A stretch of DNA of 64,000 bases from Paracidovorax konjaci (GCF_900112675.1 NZ_FOMQ01000007.1:162750-226749); one strand, 5' to 3'; shown: positions 10,162 through 63,265, counted from the first letter of the stretch. Notes: a model not told the origin generated them from the letters alone. Numbers and translations are program-made.

Positions 10162-11772
10162 ATGCATTACATCCATCGGCTCAAGGTGTCCACGCGGCTC
10201 GGCTGGCTCCTGGCGGCCCTGTGCCTGCTGGCGGCGGGCGTCGGCGGCGCGGGTCTGCTCGGCATGGGCAACTCGAACGCCGGCCTGGTCACCGTCTACC
10301 GCGACCGCGTCGTGCCGCTGCAACAGATCAAGGTGGTGGCCGATGCCTACGCGGTGAACGTCGTGGACACGGCGCACAAGGTGCGCGACGGCGCCATGAC
10401 GCCGCAGCAGGGCCTCGACTCGGTCGCCGCGGCGCGCAAGGACATCCGCACCCAGTGGGACGCCTACCTGGCGACCGACCTGCACGCCGAGGAGCACCGC
10501 CTGCTGGCGGAGTTCCGGCCGCTGCAGGCGCGCGCCGATGCCGCCGTCCAGACCCTCGAAGCGCTGCTGCGCGCCCAGGACATCCCCGGCCTCACCGCCT
10601 TCGCCGCGCGCGAGATGTACCCGGCGCTCGATCCGCTGCAGGCGGTGCTGGCCAGCCTCACGCAGGTGCAGCTCGACACGGCGCGCAGCACGTATGAAGC
10701 CGCCGAGGCGGATTACCACGCCACCCGCCAGGGCGTGATCGCCGCGGTGCTGGCCGGCATGCTGGCCGCCATCGGCTTCGGCGCGCTGGTGGTGCGCGGC
10801 ATCCTGCGCGAACTGGGCGCCGAGCCGTCCATGGCGGCGGCGGTGGCGCGCAGCGTGGCGCAGGGCGACCTGACCGTCGCCATTCCGACGCGCGACGGCG
10901 ACGCGGCCAGCCTGATGGCGCAGCTGCGGCGCATGCGCGACCAGCTCGCGGCGATGGTGGCGGCGATCCACGAGAGCGCCGAGAGCGTGTCTTCGGCGGC
11001 GCTGCAGATCGCGCAGGGCAACAGCGACCTGTCGGCCCGCACCGAGGGCCAGGCCGGCGCCCTGCAGCAGACGGCGGCCTCGATGGAGCAACTGAACGGC
11101 ACGGTGCGCCAGAACGCGGGCAACGCCCAGGAGGCCGACCGCGTGGCACAGGCCGCCTCGCGCGTGGCGGCCCAGGGCGGCGCGGCGGTGGCCGAGGTGG
11201 TGCGCACCATGCAGGACATCAACGACAGCAGCCGGCGCATCGCGGACATCACCGGCATCATCGACACCATCGCCTTCCAGACGAACATCCTGGCGCTGAA
11301 TGCCGCGGTCGAAGCGGCGCGCGCCGGCGAGCAGGGCCGCGGCTTCGCGGTGGTGGCGGGCGAGGTGCGGCAGCTCGCCCAGCGCGCGGGCCAGGCGGCC
11401 GGCGAGATCAAGGGCCTGGTCACCGCCAGCATGGAACGCGTGAACGCAGGCACCGACCAGGTCGCCCGCGCCGGCCAGACCATGGAGAGCGTGGTGCGCT
11501 CCATCCACGGCCTCTCGCAACTGGTGGAGCAGATCACGGCCGCCAGCCAGGAACAGAGCCAGGGCGTGGACCAGATCAACGACGCGGTGACCGACATGGA
11601 CCGCTCGACCCAGCACAACGCCGCGCTGGTGGAAGAGATGGCCGCCGCGGCCGCCGCCCTGAGCCAGCGCGCCCGGGAGCTGGTGGGTGCCGTATCGACC
11701 TTCCGGCTGCCCGGCGAGGCGCTGCTGGCCGCGCCGGCGGCGGGCCCGCTGCCGCGGCTGCGGCACGGCTGA
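10162..11772 (+). CDS. Methyl-accepting chemotaxis protein
   Basis: N-terminal TM segment, periplasmic four-helix-bundle-like sensor, second TM, HAMP domain, and the highly conserved signalling domain ...[34 protein letters not shown].... Confidence 0.9.
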
Positions 11773-16693: not shown

Positions 16694-16837
16694 GGAAACT
16701 CCGATGAGTCGCTCCAGCGCTTGGACGGGACACCGTCTACCCTCGCGGGACGGGAGGCTGTTTTCCCGGATAGGCGGATTCTAGTGCGCCCCGGCACGGC
16801 CTCACCAGCCCTCATCCCCCTTCCGGATGCCGCTGCC

Positions 16838-25127: not shown

Positions 25128-25474
25128 CCAAAGTGTGAAGCGCGCCGATAAGCCGGATTCTGTGCATGCGGTCGCCCGCATGTGACCGCCATTACTCTGG
25201 GCCGGGGGTCGCCCACCCGGCTCGATGCTACCTACCCGCCAGCTCCGCGGAACCACGTCAACGCTGGCCTACTTGGTATTGCTGCGCGTAGAGATTGCCC
25301 GTTTCACCCCGGCTGGTCTACCTTGCGGTACTCCCGCCGGACTCGTCTCTGTTGCTCTGATCCTCACCTCGCGGTGGACAGCCGTTAGCTGCTACGCCGT
25401 CCTGTGCAGTCCGGACGTTCCTCCAGTGCCTGGTTTCCCAGATCGCACCAGCGGCGGTCTGGCGCGCTTCACGG
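25128..25474 (-). ncRNA. rnpB: RNase P RNA (bacterial type A)
   Basis: Reverse complement contains GGAGGAACGTCCGGACTGCACAGG (P4 5' strand region, cf. GGAAAGTCCGGGCT), ...ACAGAATCCGGCTTATCGG... (P4 3' strand) and complementary P1 ends CGTGAAGCGCGCC / GGCGCGCTTCACA. Length is about 347 nt. Confidence 0.8.
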
Positions 25475-29069: not shown

Positions 29070-30686
29070 TCACGACAACCGGTCCCACGCCAGCCCGAAA
29101 CGGCCCAGGTATTTGCGCAGGCGGTCCGCATCGTTGACGGCCGTGCGCTGCGCACGCGAGGCCTGGAACAGTTGCCGCCCCGCATCCGACAGGCTGCGCG
29201 ACTGCCGGCACACCCGCACCACGGCCGCGAGCTGCAGGCGATCGAACAGGTCCAGCGCGTCCATCTGCGCGGGCCCCAGCAGGGCTTCGAGTTCAGGCAG
29301 CCCGTCCGTGCCCGCGGAATGCGCCCCCTGCGGCGGCTGCGCCGGCTGCCACAGCCAACGCAGCCGGGCGATCTCGGCCTCCACCAGCGCGAGCCCGATG
29401 CGCCCGCCTTCGGCCAGGGTCGCCAGGCGCACCACACTCGCAGACAGGTCGCGGAAGTTGCCGGACCAGAGCGCTTCCGGCGACTGCGCATAGCGCAGGT
29501 AGCCCTGCCGGGCCTCGGCCGAAAAGCGCACGCTGCGGCCCAGTTCCTCGCCGGCCCGGGCCAGCAGGTGGTCCACGTTGGGTTCGATGTCTTCCGGCCG
29601 CTGCGCCAGCCCCGGCAACTGGTAGCTCCAGAGGTTGATGCGCGCGAACAGGTCTTCGCGGAAGCGGCCTTGCGCCACTTCCGCGCGCAGGTCGCGGTTG
29701 GTGCCGGCGATGAGCTGGAAATCGCTCTCCACCTCGCGGTCGCTGCCCATCGGATAGAAGCGCTTTTCCTCCACGGCCTTGAGCAGCATGGCCTGCTCGT
29801 CCAGGCCCAGTTCACCGATCTCGTCGAGGAACAGCACACCGCCGTGGGCCGAGCGCAGCAGGCCCGCCCGGTCGGCTGCTGCGCCGGTGAAGGCACCCTT
29901 GCGGTGGCCGAACAGCGTGGATGCGGCGCCATCGCCGCGCAGCGTGGCGCAGTTGACCTCGACGAACCCGCCCTCCACCTGGTGCCGGGATTTCTTCAGT
30001 TCGTACATGCGCCGCGCGAGGTGCGACTTGCCCGCACCCGTGGGACCGGTGAAGAGGATGGGCGCGCGCGATCGCACCGCCACGCGTTCCACCTCCTCGA
30101 TGAGCGCGTTGAACGCCGGGTTGCGCGTGGCGATGCCGCTTTTGAGAAAGTCCAGCGCATCGCGCTGCTCCGCCTGGAAGCGCTGGGCCAGCGCGTCGTA
30201 GCGGGACAGATCCAGGTCGATGAGCGCGTAGCTGCCCGGGTCGCCCTCGCGCTGGCGCCGGGGCGGCGCCGTCTGCGCGAGCACACCCGGGATGCGGCGC
30301 GATTCCACCAGCAGGAAAAGGCAGATCTGCGCCACGTGCGTGCCGGTGGTGATGTGCACCCAGTACTCCTCGCGCTCCATGCGGAAGCGATAGGCCTGCA
30401 CCCAGTCGTACAGCGCGCCGTACACCTCGCCGAAATCCCACGGATCGCCGATGTCCAGCGACACCAGGCGCACGTCGGTTTCCGGCGACACCGCAGCCAG
30501 GTCGGCCTTCACCTGCGCGGCCAGGGGCGCGTGCGCCGGTGTATGGAGCAGCTCCATCCGGCGCACGACCACGTCCTCGTGCTGGGCGAGCGACACCGTG
30601 GGCCGCCATTTCTCCCACCGACCGGCGCCCTTGCCTGCATCCAGTTGGGTGCCGATGAAGCCGATGACCACTTTGCTTTTTGCCAT
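29070..30686 (-). CDS. rtcR: Sigma-54-dependent transcriptional activator RtcR (CARF sensor domain, AAA+ domain, HTH)
   Basis: N-terminal RtcR/CARF-type domain (MAKSKVVIGFIGTQLDAGKG...), AAA+ sigma-54 activator core with the GAFTGA motif (GHRKGAFTGAAADRAGLL) and Walker A GPTGAGKSHLAR. Divergent from an rtcB/rtcA operon. Confidence 0.9.
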   Translation of the reverse strand: MAKSKVVIGFIGTQLDAGKGAGRWEKWRPTVSLAQHEDVVVRRMELLHTPAHAPLAAQVKADLAAVSPETDVRLVSLDIGDPWDFGEVYGALYDWVQAYRFRMEREEYWVHITTGTHVAQICLFLLVESRRIPGVLAQTAPPRRQREGDPGSYALIDLDLSRYDALAQRFQAEQRDALDFLKSGIATRNPAFNALIEEVERVAVRSRAPILFTGPTGAGKSHLARRMYELKKSRHQVEGGFVEVNCATLRGDGAASTLFGHRKGAFTGAAADRAGLLRSAHGGVLFLDEIGELGLDEQAMLLKAVEEKRFYPMGSDREVESDFQLIAGTNRDLRAEVAQGRFREDLFARINLWSYQLPGLAQRPEDIEPNVDHLLARAGEELGRSVRFSAEARQGYLRYAQSPEALWSGNFRDLSASVVRLATLAEGGRIGLALVEAEIARLRWLWQPAQPPQGAHSAGTDGLPELEALLGPAQMDALDLFDRLQLAAVVRVCRQSRSLSDAGRQLFQASRAQRTAVNDADRLRKYLGRFGLAWDRLS

Positions 30687-30815
30687 ATCCCATTTTCTAT
30701 TTATTTATCTTTTTATATCAACTAAGAACCAACCAGTAAAGTCCGAAATCCGAGGCGCTGAGAAATATCCTTTGCAGATCAATCACTTGCAGGCAGTTCG
30801 CCCCAGATCCAGGAG

Positions 30816-30834
30816 CTGGCACGCATCTCGCAAT
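30816..30834 (+). promoter_or_regulatory. Sigma-54 (-24/-12) promoter reading toward the rtc operon
   Basis: CTGGCACGCATCTCGCAAT: TGGCAC-N5-TCGC with canonical -24 GG / -12 GC spacing (cf. glnAp2 TGGCACAGATTTCGC). It lies about 130 bp from rtcR and is preceded by an AT-rich tract (30700-30780) typical of a UAS/IHF region. Confidence 0.6.
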
Positions 30835-31007
30835 GACAAGGAGGCCAGAGACCCGTGGCGACGCTCACAGGTTGAGGGTTGTGGCGAAACGCCAGCCCTT
30901 CCGGTGCGGTGCATCCGCCGCGGGCCATCCCGCCCGGACGTCGATGCACCGCATGCCGCCCGCCACCGGGTCGCTGGCACGGCCTGCAGGTTGCAGCCCT
31001 CCGGGGT

Positions 31008-31110
31008 GCTCCGGTTCGATTCCGGGAAGGCCACTTCTGTAGCTCAGAGGTAGAGCAGCCTTGTGTCCCAAGGCCTGGCGCAGGTTCGACTCCTGCCGGA
31101 AAAACCGACC
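31008..31110 (+). ncRNA. tRNA-like structured RNA in the rtc operon leader (Y-RNA/YrlA-like candidate); not a canonical tRNA
   Basis: D-arm-like TAGCTCAGAGGTAGAGC; anticodon-arm-like GCCTT-GTGTCCC-AAGGC; T-arm-like GCAGG-TTCGACT-CCTGC. A second T-arm-like hairpin TCCGG-TTCGATT-CCGGG lies just upstream. No pairing 7-bp acceptor stem could be found. Confidence 0.45.
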
Positions 31111-31433
31111 CGGTTTCACCGCCGGGACCTTAGACGGTCGCAAGACCACCCCGCCGGACGCGGGTGCAGCGCCACGGAGCGGCCCCGCCGCCACGGTGCT
31201 GCACCCGTCAGAGGCGGCGGTTCGTGCCAGACCCGGGCACGGCCCGCGCAAGCAGCCAGCCACTCCGCAGCCCCCAGGGCCCGCGGACACGGCGCACTGC
31301 GATGCCCGTGCCGCGCCCCCTGGCTCCACCGCCACCGCTGTAACGGCACCTATTTTTGGGAACGGGCTCGTCGCCGCCAGCGGCAGCTCTCCCCTGCAGG
31401 CCGCAACGCAAGAAAGACAAAGAGGAAACCACC

Positions 31434-32567
31434 ATGCTGAAGATCCAACGCATCAAGAAGAACGAACGCGCGCTGCTGCTGCGCAACGGCGACTTCGAGC
31501 GCGTGCTGCACAGCGGCGCGCACTGGCTCTTCGCCGGCACCGACCAGCTGCGCGTGGAGACCTTCGCGCTGGAGCAGCCCGCCTTCACCCACGGCCTGGC
31601 CGATTACCTGATGGCCCGTGAACCCGAGGTGGTGGCCCGCGAGTTCGTGCGTGCCGAACTGACCGAAACCCAGGCGGGCCTGCGCACCGAGAACGGCGTG
31701 CTGGTCGAGATCCTGCCGCCGGGCACCCGGCGCCTCTACTGGAAGGGGCTGGTGGACGTGGCCGTGGAGGTGGTGGACCTGTCGCAGGGCGTGGACGTGC
31801 CCGCCGCGCTGGCCGCGCGGCTGGTGCAGACGCAGCTGCGCCACAAGCCCGTGGCCGGCCTGAACGGCGTGCTGCAGGTGCAGGTGCCCGAGGCGATGTG
31901 CGCCATCCTCACCATCGACGGCAAGGTCGAGCGGCTGCTGGGCGCCGGAATGCACGCGTTCTGGAAGTTCGGCCGCCACATCGGCGCGGAGCTGGTGGAC
32001 CTGCGCCTGCAGACGCTGGACGTGTCGGGCCAGGACATCATGACGCGCGACAAGGTCGGCCTGCGGATCAACCTGTGCGCCACCTGGCGCTACGCGGACG
32101 TTCTGCTGGCGCACCGGCGCCTGCCCAAGCCTGCCGATCACCTCTACCGCGAGCTGCAGTTCGCGCTGCGCTCCGCCGTGGGCACCCGCACGCTCGACGA
32201 GCTGCTGGAGGACAAGACGGCGATCGACGACGTGGTGCGCGCGCACCTGGTCGGCAAGCTGCCGGCCTACGGCATGGAACTCGACGGCGTGGGCGTGAAG
32301 GACATCGTGCTGCCCGGCGACATGAAGGCCATCCTGACCCAGGTGGTGCAGGCGGAAAAGCAGGCCCAGGCCAACGTGATCCGCCGCCGCGAGGAAACCG
32401 CCGCGACGCGCTCGCTGCTCAACACCGCCAAGGTGATGGAAGACAACCCCGTGGCCCTGCGCATGAAAGAGCTGGAAACGCTCGAGCGCGTGGCCGAACG
32501 CATCGACAAGATCTCCGTGTTCGGCGGGCTGGACCAGGTGCTGAACGGCCTGGTGAAGATGCGCTGA
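31434..32567 (+). CDS. SPFH/band-7 (stomatin/prohibitin/flotillin-like) domain protein, first gene of the RtcR-controlled operon
   Basis: C-terminal half GVKDIVLPGDMKAILTQVVQAEKQAQANVIRRREETAATRSLLNTAKVMEDNPVALRMKELETLERVAE is a typical SPFH core plus coiled-coil. AAGAGGA RBS before the ATG at 31434. Confidence 0.8.
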   Translation: MLKIQRIKKNERALLLRNGDFERVLHSGAHWLFAGTDQLRVETFALEQPAFTHGLADYLMAREPEVVAREFVRAELTETQAGLRTENGVLVEILPPGTRRLYWKGLVDVAVEVVDLSQGVDVPAALAARLVQTQLRHKPVAGLNGVLQVQVPEAMCAILTIDGKVERLLGAGMHAFWKFGRHIGAELVDLRLQTLDVSGQDIMTRDKVGLRINLCATWRYADVLLAHRRLPKPADHLYRELQFALRSAVGTRTLDELLEDKTAIDDVVRAHLVGKLPAYGMELDGVGVKDIVLPGDMKAILTQVVQAEKQAQANVIRRREETAATRSLLNTAKVMEDNPVALRMKELETLERVAERIDKISVFGGLDQVLNGLVKMR

Positions 32568-32618
32568 CCGACCGCCGTCGCCGCCCTGCGGCGCCGGCAC
32601 CCCAGAAAGAAGACGACC

Positions 32619-33467
32619 ATGAACAAGAAGAAAGCCATGGCACCCGGCGCCGGGCCCCAGCCGCCGCGGGAGGGCCTGCAGGCCGCGCTGGACGCGTCCA
32701 TCGAAGCGGCCTACCGCGTGTTCGGCGCGTACCGCGCGCCCGCCGGGCTGCTGGATGTGTGCACGGCCTGCTGCATGAACGCGGCCCTGGAACGCGAGAT
32801 GCGCAGCCGCCCCCTGCGCTCGCTCACCGAGCGGCATTTCTACGAATACAACGACAGCGCGAAAAGCGCCACCCAGCCCGCGGACGAGATCAAGTACCTG
32901 CTGCCCCGGCTGCTGGAACTGCTTGTCCAGGGCGCGCGGCTGCACCATTCGACCGAGCTGTACATCGACCGCGTGGGCCGTTGCGAACCGGGCGCCTTCT
33001 CCGCACGCGAGCAGCAGGCGCTGCAGGACGTCGCACTGGCGCACTTCGCGCTGGGCCTGGAGCAGTGGGCCGAGCCGGACCAGGGCGTCTTCCAGAAGGA
33101 CGATGCCTTCACGGTGCTGCTCATGTGGGACCATGCCGGCGTGGATCTCGCGCCGCTGCTGGACCACTGGCTCGCCTGCGACAGCGACTCGTCCGCGCTG
33201 CATTACGTGGATGCCTCGTACTGGGGCTTCGTGCTGAACGGCCGGCAGATCGGCGGCGCCTTCTCGAAGGACCGCCCGCGCTACCGCGAAGCCGTGGAGC
33301 ACTGGCTGACGGCCCCGGAGCACCAGGACCGGTTCACGGCCAAGCTGCTGCAGATGATGGACCGCCGCCCCGCGGATGGCTGGCTGCCGCCGGGCACGCC
33401 CGAATGCGGCTGCCACTCCACGCTGAACGACCGCATCGACGCCGTGTTCGACACCATCGCGCGATGA
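32619..33467 (+). CDS. Hypothetical Cys-rich protein (282 aa) between the SPFH gene and rtcB
   Basis: No recognisable domain by eye. Contains CTACCMNAA and PECGCH motifs. Same strand, with short spacers to neighbours (52 bp and 59 bp). Confidence 0.55.
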   Translation: MNKKKAMAPGAGPQPPREGLQAALDASIEAAYRVFGAYRAPAGLLDVCTACCMNAALEREMRSRPLRSLTERHFYEYNDSAKSATQPADEIKYLLPRLLELLVQGARLHHSTELYIDRVGRCEPGAFSAREQQALQDVALAHFALGLEQWAEPDQGVFQKDDAFTVLLMWDHAGVDLAPLLDHWLACDSDSSALHYVDASYWGFVLNGRQIGGAFSKDRPRYREAVEHWLTAPEHQDRFTAKLLQMMDRRPADGWLPPGTPECGCHSTLNDRIDAVFDTIAR

Positions 33468-33526
33468 CCCGTCCACGGACCGGCGCCGCGCTCTCCCCCC
33501 GATCCCCTCGAAATTTCCGAAGAACC

Positions 33527-34774
33527 ATGAACGAACCACAGAACCATCCCTCCGCCCCCTCCCACCAGGTCCACCGCGTCGAAGGCGGCGTGCCCGTGAA
33601 GATGTGGACGCAGGGCGTGCCCGTCGAGGACGAGGCGCGCCAGCAGCTCGAGAACGCCGCGCGCCTGCCCATCGTGTTCAAGCACATCGCGGCCATGCCC
33701 GACGTGCACTACGGCATCGGCGCCACCGTGGGCTCGGTGATCCCGACCTTCAAGGCCATCATCCCGGCCGCCGTGGGCGTGGACATCGGCTGCGGCATGA
33801 TGGCCTGCAAGACCACGCTGCACGCGAACGACCTGCCCGACAACCTGGGCCCGCTGCGCTCGGCCATCGAGCGGGCGGTACCGCACGGCAGCAACCCGAA
33901 GCGCCAGGGCCGCGACAAGGGTGCGTGGGACACCCCGCCGGACGAGACCGACCGCGCCTGGGCCGGCCTGAAGGACGAGTTCGACCGCCTCTGCGAGGAC
34001 TATCCGCGCCTGGCGAACACCAACAACCACAAGCACCTGGGCACGCTCGGCACCGGCAACCACTTCATCGAGGTGTGCCTGGACGAGCACGGCGCCGTGT
34101 GGTTCATGCTGCACTCGGGCTCGCGCGGGGTGGGCAACGCCATCGGCACGCACTTCATCGAACTGGCGAAGAAGGATGCCGAACTGCACCAGCGCAACCT
34201 GCCGGACCGCGACCTCGCGTACTTCGAGGAAGGCGCCCGCTACTTCGGCGACTACGTGCGCGCCGTCGGCTGGGCGCAGAAGTTCGCGCGCGCCAACCGC
34301 GAGGTGATGATGCACCGCCTGATCGGCGCCGTGCGCTCGGTGATCGCCAAGCCGTTCGAGACCCACCTCGAAGCGGTGAACTGCCACCACAACTACGTGA
34401 GCCGCGAGACGCATTTCGGCGAAGACGTGCTCGTCACCCGCAAGGGCGCCGTGAGCGCCAAGGCCGGCGAGCTGGGGATCATCCCCGGAAGCATGGGCGC
34501 CAAGAGCTACATCGTGCGCGGCAAGGGCAACCCCGAGAGCTTCATGAGCTGCAGCCACGGCGCAGGCCGCAAGATGAGCCGCACCAAGGCGAAGAAGCTC
34601 TACAGCGTGGCCGACCAGATCGCCGCGACCGAGGGCGTCGAGTGCCGCAAGGATGCCGACGTGATCGACGAGATCCCGATGGCCTACAAGGACATCGACG
34701 CCGTGATGGCGGCCCAGAAGGACCTGGTGGACGTGGTGTACACGCTCAAGCAGGTGGTGTGCGTGAAGGGATAG
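33527..34774 (+). CDS. rtcB: RNA-splicing ligase RtcB (3'-phosphate/2',3'-cyclic phosphate RNA ligase)
   Basis: 416 aa with the hallmark metal/GTP-binding motifs (...GTLGTGNHFIEV..., ...HSGSRGVGN..., ...CHHNY..., ...SHGAGR...). Confidence 0.92.
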   Translation: MNEPQNHPSAPSHQVHRVEGGVPVKMWTQGVPVEDEARQQLENAARLPIVFKHIAAMPDVHYGIGATVGSVIPTFKAIIPAAVGVDIGCGMMACKTTLHANDLPDNLGPLRSAIERAVPHGSNPKRQGRDKGAWDTPPDETDRAWAGLKDEFDRLCEDYPRLANTNNHKHLGTLGTGNHFIEVCLDEHGAVWFMLHSGSRGVGNAIGTHFIELAKKDAELHQRNLPDRDLAYFEEGARYFGDYVRAVGWAQKFARANREVMMHRLIGAVRSVIAKPFETHLEAVNCHHNYVSRETHFGEDVLVTRKGAVSAKAGELGIIPGSMGAKSYIVRGKGNPESFMSCSHGAGRKMSRTKAKKLYSVADQIAATEGVECRKDADVIDEIPMAYKDIDAVMAAQKDLVDVVYTLKQVVCVKG

Positions 34775-34795
34775 ACGGAACGCCTTCCCAGACGT

Positions 34796-34859
34796 TCGCT
34801 ACATATTTAATAGCAAACTATTGAATGAATCCGGCGGCATGAGGCCATTTTTATGCAAC
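34796..34859 (+). repeat. Repeat element copy D (forward, left arm partly missing) between rtcB and rtcA
   Basis: GCTACATATTTAATAGCAAACTATTGAATGAATCCGGCGGCATGAGGCCATTTTTATGCAAC. Its terminal ATGCAAC is the first ATG of the rtcA ORF called in the ORF track (34853). Confidence 0.75.
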
Positions 34860-34903
34860 AACAAGAAGAATTCCCGCGATCGGCGCATCCGATCGCCCCG
34901 GAC

Positions 34904-36046
34904 ATGCGCGTGGAATCTCCGCAAGGCGTTACCGTCCACCGCGGCGGACCGGGGGGTGCCGTGGCGCTTTCTCCGCAACCCCTGGTCCTCGACGGCTCGC
35001 ACGGCGAGGGCGGCGGGCAGATCCTGCGCACGGGCCTGGCGCTCTCGATGGTGACGGGGCGCCCGCTGCGGATCGACCGCATCCGCGCCGGGCGGCCCAA
35101 GCCCGGGCTCATGCGCCAACACCTCGCGTGCGTGCAGGCCGCCGCCGAGGTCTGCGGCGCGCAGGCCGAGGGCGCCGAGCCGGGATCGACCGCCCTGCAT
35201 TTCAGGCCCGGTGCCGTGCGCGCGGGCGACTACCGGTTCGCGATCTCGGGCGCCGGCAGTTGCCTGCTGGTGCTGCAGACCGTGCTGCCCGCGCTGCTGC
35301 TGGCGCAGGCGCCGAGCCGCGTGCAGCTCACGGGCGGCACGCACAACCCGATGGCGCCGCCGTTCGACTTCCTGGAGCTGGCCTTCGCGCCGCTGGTGCG
35401 GCGGCTGGGCGCGGGGCTGGACCTCACGCTGCGCCGCCGGGGTTTCTACCCCGCGGGCGGCGGCGAGGTGCAGGCCACCGTCACACCCGCCGCCACGGGG
35501 CTGGAGCCTTTCGACCTGCTCGATCGCGGCCCCTGCCGCGGTGCCTGGGCGCAGGCGGTGGCGCCGGGGCTGGCGCGCGGGATCGCGCGGCGCGAACTGG
35601 AAGCGCTGCGCCGCCACCTCGGCTGGCCGGGCGACCTGGCGGCCGGGCAACTGCGGGTGGCTCCCGCCCGGCAGAACGAAGGGCCCGGCAACGCGCTGCT
35701 CGCCGTGCTGGAGCACGGCGGGGTGACCGAGGTGTTCTGCGCGCTGGGCGAGCGCGGCGTCTCCGCCGAGGCCGTGGCGCACACGCTGGCCGCCGAGGTC
35801 ATCGGCTACCGGCAAGGCGGCGGCGCGGTGGGCCCGCACCTGGCCGACCAGTGGATGCTGCCGCTCGCGCTGGCCGTCTGGCGCAGCGGGCGCAGCGCCG
35901 CCTACACCGCCACGCAGGCCACCCTGCACACGCGCACGCATGCCGAACTGATTCCCCGGGGGCTGCCCGTGCGGATCACGCTGACGGAGCAGGCCGGGGG
36001 AACGCGCATCGACATCGCCCCGGCGGAGGGCCCGGCGCCGGCATAA
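34904..36046 (+). CDS. rtcA: RNA 3'-terminal phosphate cyclase RtcA
   Basis: ...[46 protein letters not shown]... matches the RtcA N-terminus. Start is uncertain: an in-frame ATG at 34853 lies inside the repeat element, and the ATG at 34904 is used here. Confidence 0.85.
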
Positions 36047-36150
36047 CCATATGCGGACGGGTTCGAAGGAGTGGTCCAAAATGCCCCGTTCCCTTTTGTC
36101 CCTCCCCTGGCCCGGCCCTGCCGGAACCCCCTTCCCACCCTGGAGACGCC

Positions 36151-37068
36151 ATGAAAATCGACAGCATCCTGCAATCCATCGGCAACACGCCGCACGTGCG
36201 CATCAACCGCCTCTTCGGCGCGGGAGCGAACGTCTGGGTCAAGTCCGAGCGCAGCAACCCGGGCGGCTCCATCAAGGACCGCATCGCGCTCTCCATGGTC
36301 GAGGACGCGGAGCGCTCCGGCGCGCTGCAGCCCGGCGGCACGATCATCGAGCCCACCTCGGGCAACACCGGCATCGGCCTCGCGCTGGTCGCCGCGGTGA
36401 AGGGCTACCGGCTCATCCTCGTGATGCCCGACAGCATGAGCATCGAGCGCCGCCGCCTGATGCTGGCCTACGGAGCGCAGTTCGACCTGACCCCGCGCGA
36501 GAAGGGCATGAAAGGCGCCATCGCGCGTGCGCAGGAACTGGCCGCGCAGACGCCCGGCGCCTGGGTGCCGCAGCAGTTCGAGAACCCCGCCAACATCGAC
36601 GTGCACGTGCGCACCACGGCGCAGGAGATCCTGGCCGACTTCCCCGAGGGCTTCGACGCGCTCATCACCGGCGTGGGCACGGGCGGCCACATCACGGGCG
36701 TGGCGCGCGTGCTGAAGGCGCAGTTCCCCCAGCTCAAGGTGTTCGCCGTGGAGCCCGTCGCCTCGCCGGTGATCTCCGGCGGCCAGCCCGCACCGCACCC
36801 GATCCAGGGCATCGGCGCGGGCTTCGTGCCGAAGAACCTCGACACCAGCCTGCTCGACGGCGTGGTGCAGGTCGATGCCGAACCCGCGCGCGAATACGCC
36901 CGCCGTGCCGCGCGCGAGGAAGGCCTGCTCGTGGGCATCTCGTCGGGCGCCACGCTGGCGGCCATCGCCCAGAAGCTGCCCGAACTGCCGCAGGGCGCGC
37001 GCGTGCTGGGCTTCAACTACGACACGGGCGAGCGCTACCTGTCGGTCGAAGGCTTCCTGCCGGGGTGA
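36151..37068 (+). CDS. cysK: Cysteine synthase (O-acetylserine sulfhydrylase, CysK/CysM family)
   Basis: PLP-binding Lys motif [11 protein letters not shown], glycine-rich loop [13 protein letters not shown] motif. Confidence 0.9.
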
Positions 37069-62129: not shown

Positions 62130-63265
62130 TCGCGCTGGCCCGCAAGACACTGGTCCATGAGTGGCGCCGCTTCGTGCCCGCGGTGTTCGCGGTGGGGTTC
62201 TCGTGCGTGCTGCTCGTCGTACAGGCTGCGCTCGTGCTGGGCATCTTCGGCAGCGCGGCGCTGTATGTGCGGGCGTCGGGTGCGGACCTGTGGGCCGGCT
62301 ATCCGGGCACGCAGAGCGTGAACTTCGGCCGGGCGATCGGCCGCGACGTGGACCTGCGCCTCGCCATGGACCCCGCTGTCAGCGCCACCGAACCCTACCT
62401 CTGGGTGGATGGAGACTGGCGCAGCAGCCGGGCCGGCGGCGGTGGCGTGTCGATCTACCTCTCCGGAATTCGCACCGCACCGGACGGCATGCTGTTCTCG
62501 CGCCTGCTCAATGACTGGCAACGTGCGGCACTCAGGGACCCGGGCGCGGTCATCGTGGACCACGAGGACATGGGCACCCTGGGTACGCGGGTGGGCGGTA
62601 CGGCCTGGATCAACGCACGCCCCGTCCGCGTGGTGGCGGCGGTGGACGGGCTGCGCGGCCTGGGCGGCGTCAACGTGCTGGCCTCGCTCGATACCGCACG
62701 CGAGATCGCCGGCGCGGAGGCCGCCGCGGCAGGGCCGACCTACGTCGTCGCCCGGACCCACACGCCCGCACAGGCGGCACAGGCGCAGGCCCGGCTGTCC
62801 GCGGGCGCCCCGGGGTTCGGCCCCTTCGAGGTCTGGACGGCGCCCCAGTTCGCGCGCCGCTCCCAGCTCTACTGGCTGCTGGACACGGGCGCGGGCGTGG
62901 CCGTACTGTTCATGGTGGGCATCGTGTGCCTCGTCGGCACGGTGGTCACCAGCCAGTCGCTGATGGGCATCGTGGCCGGCTCGGCGCGCGAATATGCCGT
63001 GCTCAACGCGCTCGGGGTCAGCCGCCGCGCACTGGGCCGGCTGGTGGTCGAGCAGGCATGCTGGATCGGCGGACTCGGCCTGCTCCTGGGCGCCGCTGCC
63101 AGTGCCGCGCTGCTCTGGCTGGCCGGGGTGCAGGGCGTGCCGGTGGCGATGACGCCGGCCATCGCGCTGGCCTGCGCGGCGCTCGTGGCACTCGTTTCGC
63201 TGCTTTCGGGCCTTCTGGCCATGCGCGGCCTCATGGCGGCGGACCCTGCACTGCTCCTGCGATGA
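62126..63265 (+). CDS. ABC transporter permease, FtsX/MacB-like (one N-terminal TM, large periplasmic domain, three C-terminal TMs)
   Basis: GTG start overlapping the upstream stop (GTGA). Topology inferred from hydrophobic segments at residues ~15-40 and ~280-380. Confidence 0.7.
   Translation: MIALARKTLVHEWRRFVPAVFAVGFSCVLLVVQAALVLGIFGSAALYVRASGADLWAGYPGTQSVNFGRAIGRDVDLRLAMDPAVSATEPYLWVDGDWRSSRAGGGGVSIYLSGIRTAPDGMLFSRLLNDWQRAALRDPGAVIVDHEDMGTLGTRVGGTAWINARPVRVVAAVDGLRGLGGVNVLASLDTAREIAGAEAAAAGPTYVVARTHTPAQAAQAQARLSAGAPGFGPFEVWTAPQFARRSQLYWLLDTGAGVAVLFMVGIVCLVGTVVTSQSLMGIVAGSAREYAVLNALGVSRRALGRLVVEQACWIGGLGLLLGAAASAALLWLAGVQGVPVAMTPAIALACAALVALVSLLSGLLAMRGLMAADPALLLR

Follow-up and report, generated by a model that had tools for sequence, protein, structure and literature searches.

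A probable RtcR/sigma-54-controlled RtcB operon of Paracidovorax konjaci with an SPFH/Band-7 protein and a large tRNA-like leader RNA

Introduction

Why does a bacterial RNA-repair operon place an SPFH/Band-7 protein and a tRNA-like RNA between its regulator and its enzymes, and what could the two contribute to RNA ligation? This question is raised by a locus of Paracidovorax konjaci that we analyzed within a window of 64,000 nucleotides (nt; NZ_FOMQ01000007.1:162750-226749; 70% G+C). Here, rtcR on the minus strand is divergent from a sigma-54 promoter followed, all on the plus strand, by a leader RNA, an SPFH gene, a gene for a protein of 282 amino acids (aa), rtcB, and rtcA. To judge from its sequence, the locus belongs, as an ordinary member, to the RtcB RNA-repair operons of the Band-7(SPFH)/tRNA-like-RNA class, under the control of RtcR and sigma-54: it encodes the RtcB ligase, the linkage between Band-7/SPFH and RtcB is conserved, and a tRNA-like noncoding RNA (ncRNA) adjoins the Band-7 gene. 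We favor, with moderate confidence, the reading that this RNA is the partner of a soluble SPFH oligomer that aids RtcA and RtcB.

The class itself has a history. Wang et al. (10.1101/312249) present a combination of Band-7 protein, b7a-tRNA and RtcB, crediting Burroughs & Aravind 2016, and a 2026 preprint (PMC13404743) credits the same authors with the observation that bacterial MVP homologs share operons with ncRNAs and RtcB. Wang et al. also suggested that b7a-tRNA may be functionally redundant with Ro/YrlA (10.1101/312249). As these sources convey it, the class was predicted in 2016 by comparative genomics, and the description of the locus as an undescribed system, given in an initial annotation made from the sequence, has to be withdrawn. 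No experimental characterization of the Band-7/tRNA-like-RNA branch was found in the searchable literature. The abstract of the 2016 study reportedly assigned the part of scaffolding cofactors to SPFH/Band-7 modules and a novel tRNA-like molecule.

Results

An operon of four genes and a leader RNA behind a sigma-54 promoter

Gene identities were assigned from an open reading frame (ORF) listing and from Pfam and NCBIfam profile searches, which placed rtcR, the SPFH gene, the 282-aa gene, rtcB and rtcA where the initial annotation had put them or close by. The rtcR product (29070-30686, minus strand; 538 aa) combines a CARF-type sensor with an AAA+ sigma-54 activator (Pfam RtcR PF06956, 272 bits; Sigma54_activat PF00158, 170 bits) and scores 825 bits against a cutoff of 650 with the RtcR equivalog model of NCBIfam, RNA_repair_RtcR (NF038308). 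On the plus strand, the SPFH gene (31434-32567) and the 282-aa gene (32619-33467) precede rtcB (33527-34774), which encodes an RNA 3'-phosphate/2',3'-cyclic phosphate ligase of 415 aa (Pfam RtcB, 431 bits, residues 40-415), and rtcA (34853-36046), which encodes an RNA 3'-terminal phosphate cyclase (Pfam RTC, 252 bits; NCBIfam NF003246, 389 bits against a cutoff of 352). Because the family model matches rtcA only from about residue 44 of the longest ORF, the true start probably lies 50-130 nt further in (34904-34982). The closest relatives of the proteins are found in Acidovorax and Paracidovorax, where the SPFH protein reaches 98% and the 282-aa protein 90% identity.

The gaps between the four plus-strand genes measure 51, 59 and 78-207 nt, and no terminator-like sites were found on the plus strand in 30500-36400. 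Both features are compatible with a single transcript. The proposal of one RtcR-controlled unit holds as a prediction. The spacer from the rtcB stop to the first possible rtcA start (34775-34852) is AT-rich (e.g. ACATATTTAATAGCAAACTATTGAATGAA) despite the 70% G+C of the genome; its position is that of a second variable cargo slot in related loci, often filled by RlaP. Ro, which had been reported missing from the operon, is indeed absent: none of the five unit proteins (RtcR and the products of the four operon genes) has a TROVE/Ro match in Pfam, and the YrlA match is a partial one (18.8 bits, E=0.43; gathering score 69), with none at the gathering threshold anywhere in the window.

A pattern search located the sigma-54 -24/-12 promoter TGGCACGCATCTCGCA (TGGCAC-N5-TCGCA) at 30817-30832 on the plus strand, with its GG at 30818-30819 and its GC at 30830-30831, 12 nt apart, and a predicted transcription start near 30843. 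The pattern TGGCAC-N5-TYGCW occurs twice in the 64 kb against 0.22 matches expected by chance; the second exact match, TGGCACTCGTTTCGCT, lies at 63186-63201 on the plus strand. Comparison confirms the near-consensus promoter noted initially: of 37 related loci with a divergent rtcR, 36 have an equivalent motif, whereas none of the 44 related loci without rtcR has one. In 27 of the rtcR loci, the motif precedes the RNA's first conserved block by a fixed distance of 46-49 nt. A putative IHF-like site, ATCAATCACTTG (30778-30789, plus strand), can be read from the sequence ~35 nt upstream of the -24 element. The IHF consensus is WATCAANNNNTTR, and the ATCAANNNNTTG block recurs in other leaders with a divergent rtcR.

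The leader is a large RNA under structural selection

The predicted leader contains a conserved structured RNA of ~490 nt, extending from GCTCACAGG to GCTGTAACGGCACC (30864-31350, plus strand), with 18 consensus helices and two tRNA-like modules. It was found by nhmmer in every surveyed locus with enough upstream sequence and also in Burkholderia cenocepacia. For structural analysis, 49 non-redundant leader sequences were aligned with MAFFT without fitting to any structure, and RNAalifold returned a consensus of 76-117 pairs, varying with the scoring used. Covariation was compared with two controls, in which the 3' partners were slid by 1-3 columns or the alignment was shuffled 500 times. Standard pairs occupied 88.4% of cells, against 36-48% after sliding and 74.2% after shuffling; both sides had changed in 88 of 117 pairs (56-65 slid, 63.9 shuffled); and the covariation score was 0.406 (0.08-0.10 slid, 0.169 shuffled). 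None of the 500 shuffles reached any observed value. The case for structure rests on covariation only, because single-sequence folding of 30961-31110 is uninformative in 70% GC DNA (z = 0.04 against shuffles). Apart from tRNA, no Rfam family matched in 30650-36300, even at E up to 5-10.

The 5' domain (30870-30957) comprises the hairpin P1 (30870-30879/30895-30902) and the long hairpin P2 (30903-30919/30937-30957), with compensatory changes in 5 of 8 pairs of helix 1 and 12 of 17 pairs of helix 2, respectively. It is followed by tRNA-like module 1 (30981-31032; helices 3-5), which consists of an acceptor-like stem (30981-30986/31027-31032), all six pairs of which covary, a small hairpin, and a T-arm, GGTTCGATTCC (31010-31014/31022-31026), located ~70 nt upstream of that of module 2; a D-arm is missing. 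The region gives weak partial Rfam matches to YrlA and tRNA-Sec. In 42 of the 49 relatives, CCA (mostly ACCA) follows module 1 immediately, right before module 2 begins.

Module 2 (31033-31106; helices 6-9) is composed of a short acceptor, a D-arm, an anticodon-like arm, and a T-arm. It matches Rfam tRNA at 38.3 bits against a gathering score of 29 (31033-31104) and is the single tRNA-like call of ARAGORN across the 64 kb, as tRNA-Asp(GTC) at 31033-31106. The tRNA-like element noted initially is thus present, but it measures 74 nt and not the ~100 nt ascribed to it. It lies 328 nt upstream of the SPFH start and is conserved in all 49 aligned leaders. Its acceptor has 4-5 pairs instead of seven, with the two outer pairs flagged as non-standard, and its anticodon-like loop occurs in 32 different sequences among the 49 relatives. 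We considered module 2 as a genuine decoding tRNA, given a cloverleaf above the Rfam threshold, and rejected this because the acceptor is short and loop identity is not kept. The varying anticodon, the GNRA tetraloops that replace the loop in some relatives, and the short acceptor indicate that module 2 mimics the shape of tRNA and does not decode.

Downstream of the modules, a GGTC-GCAA-GACC hairpin (31136-31147; helix 10) is capped by a GNRA tetraloop, GCAA or GAAA among the relatives. The 3' domain (31153-31350; helices 11-18) is organized by long-range helices at 31209-31221/31328-31340 and 31240-31255/31297-31313, in which 10 of 13 and 15 of 15 pairs covary, respectively. An invariant CGGC at 31344-31347 may pair with an invariant GCCG at 31153-31156 or, alternatively, at 30954-30957; the partner is ambiguous because neither block ever varies. 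The tRNA-like piece is, in sum, one part of a ~490-nt RNA under strong structural selection that carries two tRNA-like modules. This larger RNA looks less well described than the tRNA-like element, and its size and structure may be new.

Smaller elements of similar appearance occur elsewhere in related operons (L-numbers denote the related loci that we retrieved). In L003 (6076-6141), L001 (5901-5988) and L002 (2727-2815), a T-arm, a 3' strand and ACCA form a unit that resembles the tRNA-like part of tmRNA and immediately precedes accessory genes of the operon, 282-aa homologs included; Rfam tmRNA matches to these elements are weak (17-21 bits). In L001 (Rhizobacter, CP050901.1), a YrlA-like RNA lies just upstream of rtcB (10739-10867; 60.4 bits against a gathering score of 69) and coexists with the SPFH-associated RNA in one operon.

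An RNA in this position could also serve the message that it precedes. By this account, the ~490-nt structure would be mainly a cis-acting leader for the translation, stability or processing of the SPFH-rtcB mRNA, read for example by tRNA-processing or tRNA-binding factors, and there would be no free RNA cofactor. Its placement argues for such a role, as the RNA sits directly 5' of the SPFH gene in every locus, whatever the promoter type, with just ~85 nt, free of terminator-like sites, between its 3' boundary and the ATG; the T-arm and ACCA elements before other operon genes in L003, L001 and L002, moreover, look like polycistronic punctuation. However, 18 covarying helices and two tRNA mimics exceed the needs of known leaders of this kind, the parallel Ro system uses free Y RNAs (10.1101/312249; PMC7790460), and the Rhizobacter locus has both the leader RNA and the YrlA-like RNA. 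We consider a mainly cis-acting leader unlikely, though worth serious attention.

The anticodon-like arm invites a different explanation, in which the modules are decoys or sensors for tRNA-cleaving toxins, either absorbing anticodon nucleases or yielding cyclic-phosphate fragments that feed back on RtcR. A 7-nt anticodon-like loop is kept in 38 of the 49 relatives, typically with U at position 33 and with very diverse anticodons; RtcR is activated by damaged tRNA or tRNA fragments (PMC7790460); and a "sponge" role has been proposed by the authors of a study of the Anabaena tRNA operon for its stress-induced tRNAs (PMC8421152). On the other hand, a GNRA tetraloop replaces the loop, and with it the usual nuclease target, in 11 of the 49 relatives and in B. 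cenocepacia, which makes a general role as anticodon-nuclease bait unlikely. The RNA is equally conserved in the 44-46 loci without rtcR, and in Salmonella the nuclease responsible for operon activation leaves the tRNA-like YrlA uncleaved (PMC7790460). A decoy or sensor function is, in our estimate, improbable.

The SPFH protein lacks a membrane anchor

The SPFH/Band-7 ("slipin") protein has 377 aa when counted from the ATG at 31434, while a longer ORF from TTG begins at 31356. A ~150-aa N-terminal domain is followed by the SPFH domain (Pfam Band_7, 102 bits, residues 150-321) and by a helical C-terminal region that hardly varies from genus to genus; more than 7800 relatives were found at E<=1e-10. 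In agreement with the initial annotation, the protein has no N-terminal transmembrane segment (TM). No hydrophobic segment of any kind was detected in it, the maximal 19-residue Kyte-Doolittle mean being 1.28, and the first 150 residues are polar.

An AlphaFold model computed from a shallow alignment had an overall predicted local distance difference test (pLDDT) score of 59, with an acceptable SPFH domain, an N-terminal domain at pLDDT 35-49, and a helix at residues 295-337 after the SPFH domain. Compared with the Protein Data Bank (PDB) using Foldseek, the model matched stomatin (E=3e-14), HflK/C, prohibitin, erlin, flotillin, and MVP, all of which form rings or cages. The MVP chains matched with E about 1e-9 to 1e-10 over 430-490 columns, a comparison that includes the N-terminal part modeled at pLDDT 35-49. 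The predicted fold supports an oligomeric scaffold, and the matches do not separate a vault-like from a stomatin-like form.

The initial annotation placed the system at the membrane, as an undescribed response to RNA damage with the SPFH protein as organizer of a microdomain or regulator of a protease. Most characterized SPFH proteins are indeed membrane scaffolds, the best fold matches here are to stomatin and HflK/C, and in six related loci, all without rtcR, a gene for a ClpP-like SDH protease/NfeD-N protein comes right after the SPFH gene. Against this, the protein has neither a TM nor a hydrophobic anchor, so that membrane microdomains find no evidence in the sequence; no NfeD or protease partner gene is present in the window operon; and the class had already been described in 2016 by Burroughs & Aravind, according to 10.1101/312249 and PMC13404743. 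A membrane-associated response of this type seems very improbable to us.

The SPFH protein also has more distant relatives, in Burkholderia (64% identity), E. coli and Citrobacter (56-57%), Photobacterium, a Firmicute, and Nostoc. In E. coli STEC639 (CP061233.1, L084 6680-8925), where the locus lies between yjbD and lysC, the slipin gene (56% identity) stands behind CTGGCACGCTTCTCGCAAT, a sigma-54 promoter almost the same as that of the window. This locus has a reduced leader with one T-arm, a nucleotidyltransferase gene after the slipin gene, and no rtcR nearby, an arrangement that points to an RtcR-regulon satellite in some strains of E. coli.

Two genomic settings share one RNA-SPFH-RtcB cassette

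To place the operon among its relatives, we searched genomes, one for each species, for SPFH relatives, found at least 536 places that encode one, and took the best 80, whose neighbor genes were identified by tblastn with the five window proteins. These loci belong to Burkholderiales, apart from one Silanimonas contig and one labeled Synechococcus, and their SPFH proteins show 63-90% identity. The initial annotation had called for a test of whether the SPFH and the 282-aa gene keep company with the rtc genes across genomes. Such a linkage was borne out for the SPFH gene, which is followed by rtcB within 0-6 kb in 64 of the 80 loci (several of the remainder are truncated contigs), but not for the 282-aa gene, which is present in only 8 of the 80. 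Nor is SPFH-rtcB adjacency confined to one lineage, as it also occurs in P. aeruginosa (PMC13086221).

The loci fall into two arrangements. In the first (36-37 loci, window included), a divergent rtcR is followed by the sigma-54 promoter, the RNA, the SPFH gene, a variable slot, rtcB, a second slot, and rtcA, and nearly all rtcR loci carry rtcA downstream. In the second (44-46 loci), neither rtcR nor rtcA is present, and the RNA-SPFH-rtcB cassette has an equally conserved RNA. In 32 of 46 loci without rtcR, a gene for an HNH endonuclease (Pfam HNH_5/HNH) lies directly upstream of the RNA, and in 25 of 46, 3-15 tandem same-strand tRNA genes with diverse anticodons stand ahead of HNH/RNA. Such tRNA-array cassettes were seen in L021, L026, L031 (342-2705), L035, L039, L073 (4672-7699), and others. 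A single Rhizobacter genome has both arrangements, one with rtcR (L001) and one without (L043). These two alternative genomic settings of the cassette may be new.

In our analysis, the tRNA-array cassettes resemble the cyanobacterial L-array tRNA operons and the Anabaena TrcR regulon. In cyanobacteria, HNH and rtcB genes are recurrent neighbors of long tRNA arrays (PMC8421152), and in Anabaena, both a trcR mutation and translational stress lead to derepression of slipin, rtcB, an HNH gene and a tRNA operon of 26 genes, slipin and rtcB being co-induced though non-adjacent (PMC10272220). The Burkholderiales arrangement without rtcR combines the same elements, namely tRNA genes, HNH, SPFH/slipin and rtcB, and in our comparison is a physically clustered version of the Anabaena regulon. 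The window, by contrast, has no tRNA array and no HNH gene, with RtcR/sigma-54 control instead.

The two slots carry a changing cargo. In 12 loci, the slot between rtcB and rtcA holds RlaP. The second most common cargo of the SPFH-to-rtcB slot is a 246-aa family unrelated to the 282-aa one (8 loci), and the ClpP-like SDH protease/NfeD-N gene mentioned above is found in six loci. Other cargo includes MoxR with a vWA-metallopeptidase, a metallo-beta-lactamase-fold protein, a treble-clef zinc finger, a WD40-like protein and, in one Vandammella locus, an ADP-ribosylglycohydrolase. An ORF of L001 (8801-9646) was considered as a Ro/TROVE remnant and dropped, as Pfam gave no support.

The 282-aa protein belongs to a family of sporadic accessories

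The 282-aa protein is all-alpha and carries an invariant CxxCC motif together with a conserved HH and C, which form a possible zinc site. With 7 cysteines among 282 residues, it is not the Cys-rich protein that it was taken for, apart from this motif. The lack of a recognizable domain was confirmed, as Pfam, NCBIfam and PADLOC gave no match. A word-indexed search of 5.8 billion proteins returned only 77 relatives, essentially all from Comamonadaceae-type bacteria. All close relatives whose context we examined are at an rtc locus or an SPFH-RNA cassette, nearly all of them between SPFH (or rtcR) and rtcB. In the metagenomic locus L003, the order is rtcR, 282-aa gene, rtcB, with no SPFH gene; the exception is L038, where rtcR and rtcB are both missing from the 9 kb fetched. 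Its presence in 8 of 80 SPFH loci marks the 282-aa protein as a sporadic accessory, not as a constant component.

When 1.84 billion cluster representatives were searched with a profile, the family widened to 2668 clusters at E<=1e-3, and no Pfam domain was found above the curated cutoff in the family region of 10 sampled members. In a 558-aa fusion (P0335/P0371, L086 6001-7677), the family domain (residues 7-238) is joined to an RlaP nucleotidyltransferase; the fusion is alone on its contigs, with no RNA ligase near. A Conchiformibius member is encoded 10 nt upstream of an AAA_33 kinase/T4 Rnl1-type RNA ligase. By such gene associations, the family is tied to three RNA-repair enzymes (RtcB, RlaP, and T4-type ligase) in some lineages, not universally, and the 282-aa protein could be an adaptor or cofactor of RNA ligases or an immunity-like inhibitor of an RNA-cleaving toxin. 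It represents a large uncharacterized family, whose breadth and repair links may be new. The 246-aa cargo family was considered as a relative and ruled out (hhalign probability 0.3%).

The SPFH and 282-aa genes could also be passengers between rtcR and rtcBA, with no functional link to RNA repair. Besides the low count of the 282-aa gene, distant members of its family stand in unrelated contexts, and deletion of PaFlo8, the SPFH ortholog of P. aeruginosa, gave no phenotype. This is countered by the adjacency of SPFH and rtcB in two regulatory contexts, by the co-induction of the non-adjacent Anabaena genes (PMC10272220), and by the ties of the 282-aa family to RlaP and T4-type ligase. For the SPFH gene, the conserved neighborhood has largely refuted this explanation, and for the pair we give it hardly any credence.

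Elsewhere in the window, bacterial class A RNase P RNA (25133-25470, minus strand; 199.9 bits) is encoded ~3.6 kb from rtcR, and a chrB-b RNA motif is present at 16714-16769 (minus strand; 41.6 bits against a gathering score of 36.5).

Discussion

The locus can be set beside several known systems. In the Band-7/b7a-tRNA class, as its sources describe it, RtcB adjoins a Band-7 protein and a predicted tRNA-resembling ncRNA in place of Ro and Y RNA, with a proposed role as scaffold or cofactor for RNA ligation, and the same composition is found here. Relative to that account, the tRNA-like piece of the window is one of two modules in a ~490-nt RNA of 18 helices, and the operon has the 282-aa accessory gene in addition. 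The P. aeruginosa rtc locus, which contains rtcR, PaFlo8 (SPFH), rtcB, RlaP and rtcA (PMC13086221; PMC12776372), shares with the window a divergent rtcR, an SPFH gene inside the locus, rtcB followed by rtcA, and an accessory in a variable slot. However, its accessory is RlaP, between rtcB and rtcA, whereas that of the window is the 282-aa protein, between SPFH and rtcB, and RlaP is absent.

The Salmonella rsr-yrlBA-rtcBA operon (PMC7790460; 10.1101/312249) has the same regulator, promoter type and enzymes and likewise a tRNA-mimicking ncRNA 5' of rtcB. The RNAs have similar T-arm and D-arm sequences, as reflected in weak YrlA matches, those of L001 and L002 reaching 27-37 bits. In contrast to Salmonella, the window has no Ro/TROVE protein and its YrlA match stays below the gathering score; its RNA is ~4x longer than YrlA, and the partner protein is of a different fold family. 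A more distant parallel is the eukaryotic vault, where MVP, with its SPFH-like shoulder, and vault RNA present the same pairing of an anchorless SPFH-family protein with a structured RNA, yet stomatin, HflK/C and prohibitin outscore MVP, and the model of the N-terminal domain is unreliable (pLDDT 35-49). With the membrane SPFH scaffolds (stomatin, HflK/C, flotillin, QmcA), the protein shares an SPFH domain followed by a C-terminal helix, and it differs from them in having no N-terminal TM or hydrophobic hairpin and no NfeD or protease partner gene.

We propose the following course of events. RNA breaks with 2',3'-cyclic phosphate ends would activate the CARF domain of RtcR, as work in Salmonella and E. 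coli suggests, and active RtcR would switch on the sigma-54 promoter, so that the RNA and the genes are transcribed together. On our assessment, RtcR activation and the promoter switch are the only steps that rest on experiments, which were done in other species; the later steps we infer. The tRNA-processing enzymes probably release the structured RNA by cutting at its tRNA-like modules, and this RNA would then become the partner of a soluble, ring- or cage-forming SPFH oligomer, as Y RNA is of Ro or vault RNA of MVP. The resulting particle may present or hold broken tRNA-shaped substrates for RtcA, which heals the ends, and RtcB, which seals them. The 282-aa protein would be an optional accessory of the RNA ligase, acting as an adaptor or as an inhibitor of an RNA-cleaving toxin.

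Several points weigh against this proposal. The RNA always immediately precedes the SPFH gene, and no terminator is predicted between the two, which also fits a purely cis-acting leader. The window copy has only AC after module 1 and not the CCA of most relatives. The analogy to a cage or vault is drawn from the domain family, with an SPFH model of low overall pLDDT. As of 2018, b7a-tRNA lacked experimental validation (10.1101/312249), and the PaFlo8 deletion was without phenotype in general assays. Three other distant members of the 282-aa family, and the RlaP fusion itself, are found in contexts without repair genes. With these points taken into account, we still judge an RtcR/sigma-54-controlled Band-7/tRNA-like-RNA RtcB operon, with the RNA as partner of a soluble SPFH oligomer aiding RtcA and RtcB, to be the probable reading.

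A bolder version, which joins all of these elements, we put forward tentatively and regard as possible but doubtful. A new large structured RNA, whose first tRNA-like module usually ends in ACCA where the second begins, would be freed through tRNA-processing enzymes and enter a soluble cage of SPFH protein, giving a bacterial vault-like RNA-repair particle. The 282-aa protein would be the founder of a family of zinc-binding helical RNA-ligase cofactors, serving RtcB, RlaP and T4 Rnl1-type ligase, and the cassette would plug into either RtcR/sigma-54 islands or tRNA-array/HNH "translation rescue" islands.

For the Band-7/tRNA-like-RNA branch, the present analysis supplies handles in the form of an exact promoter, RNA boundaries, a covariation-supported structure, an anchorless SPFH protein, and interchangeable accessory genes. 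Through the tRNA-array islands, RtcB repair is connected with a wider program for rescue of the translation apparatus. Should the RNA and the SPFH protein form a particle, bacteria would have a counterpart of the Ro/Y-RNA and vault particles, one that would help to explain how RtcB locates its substrates when toxins or antibiotics have caused damage.

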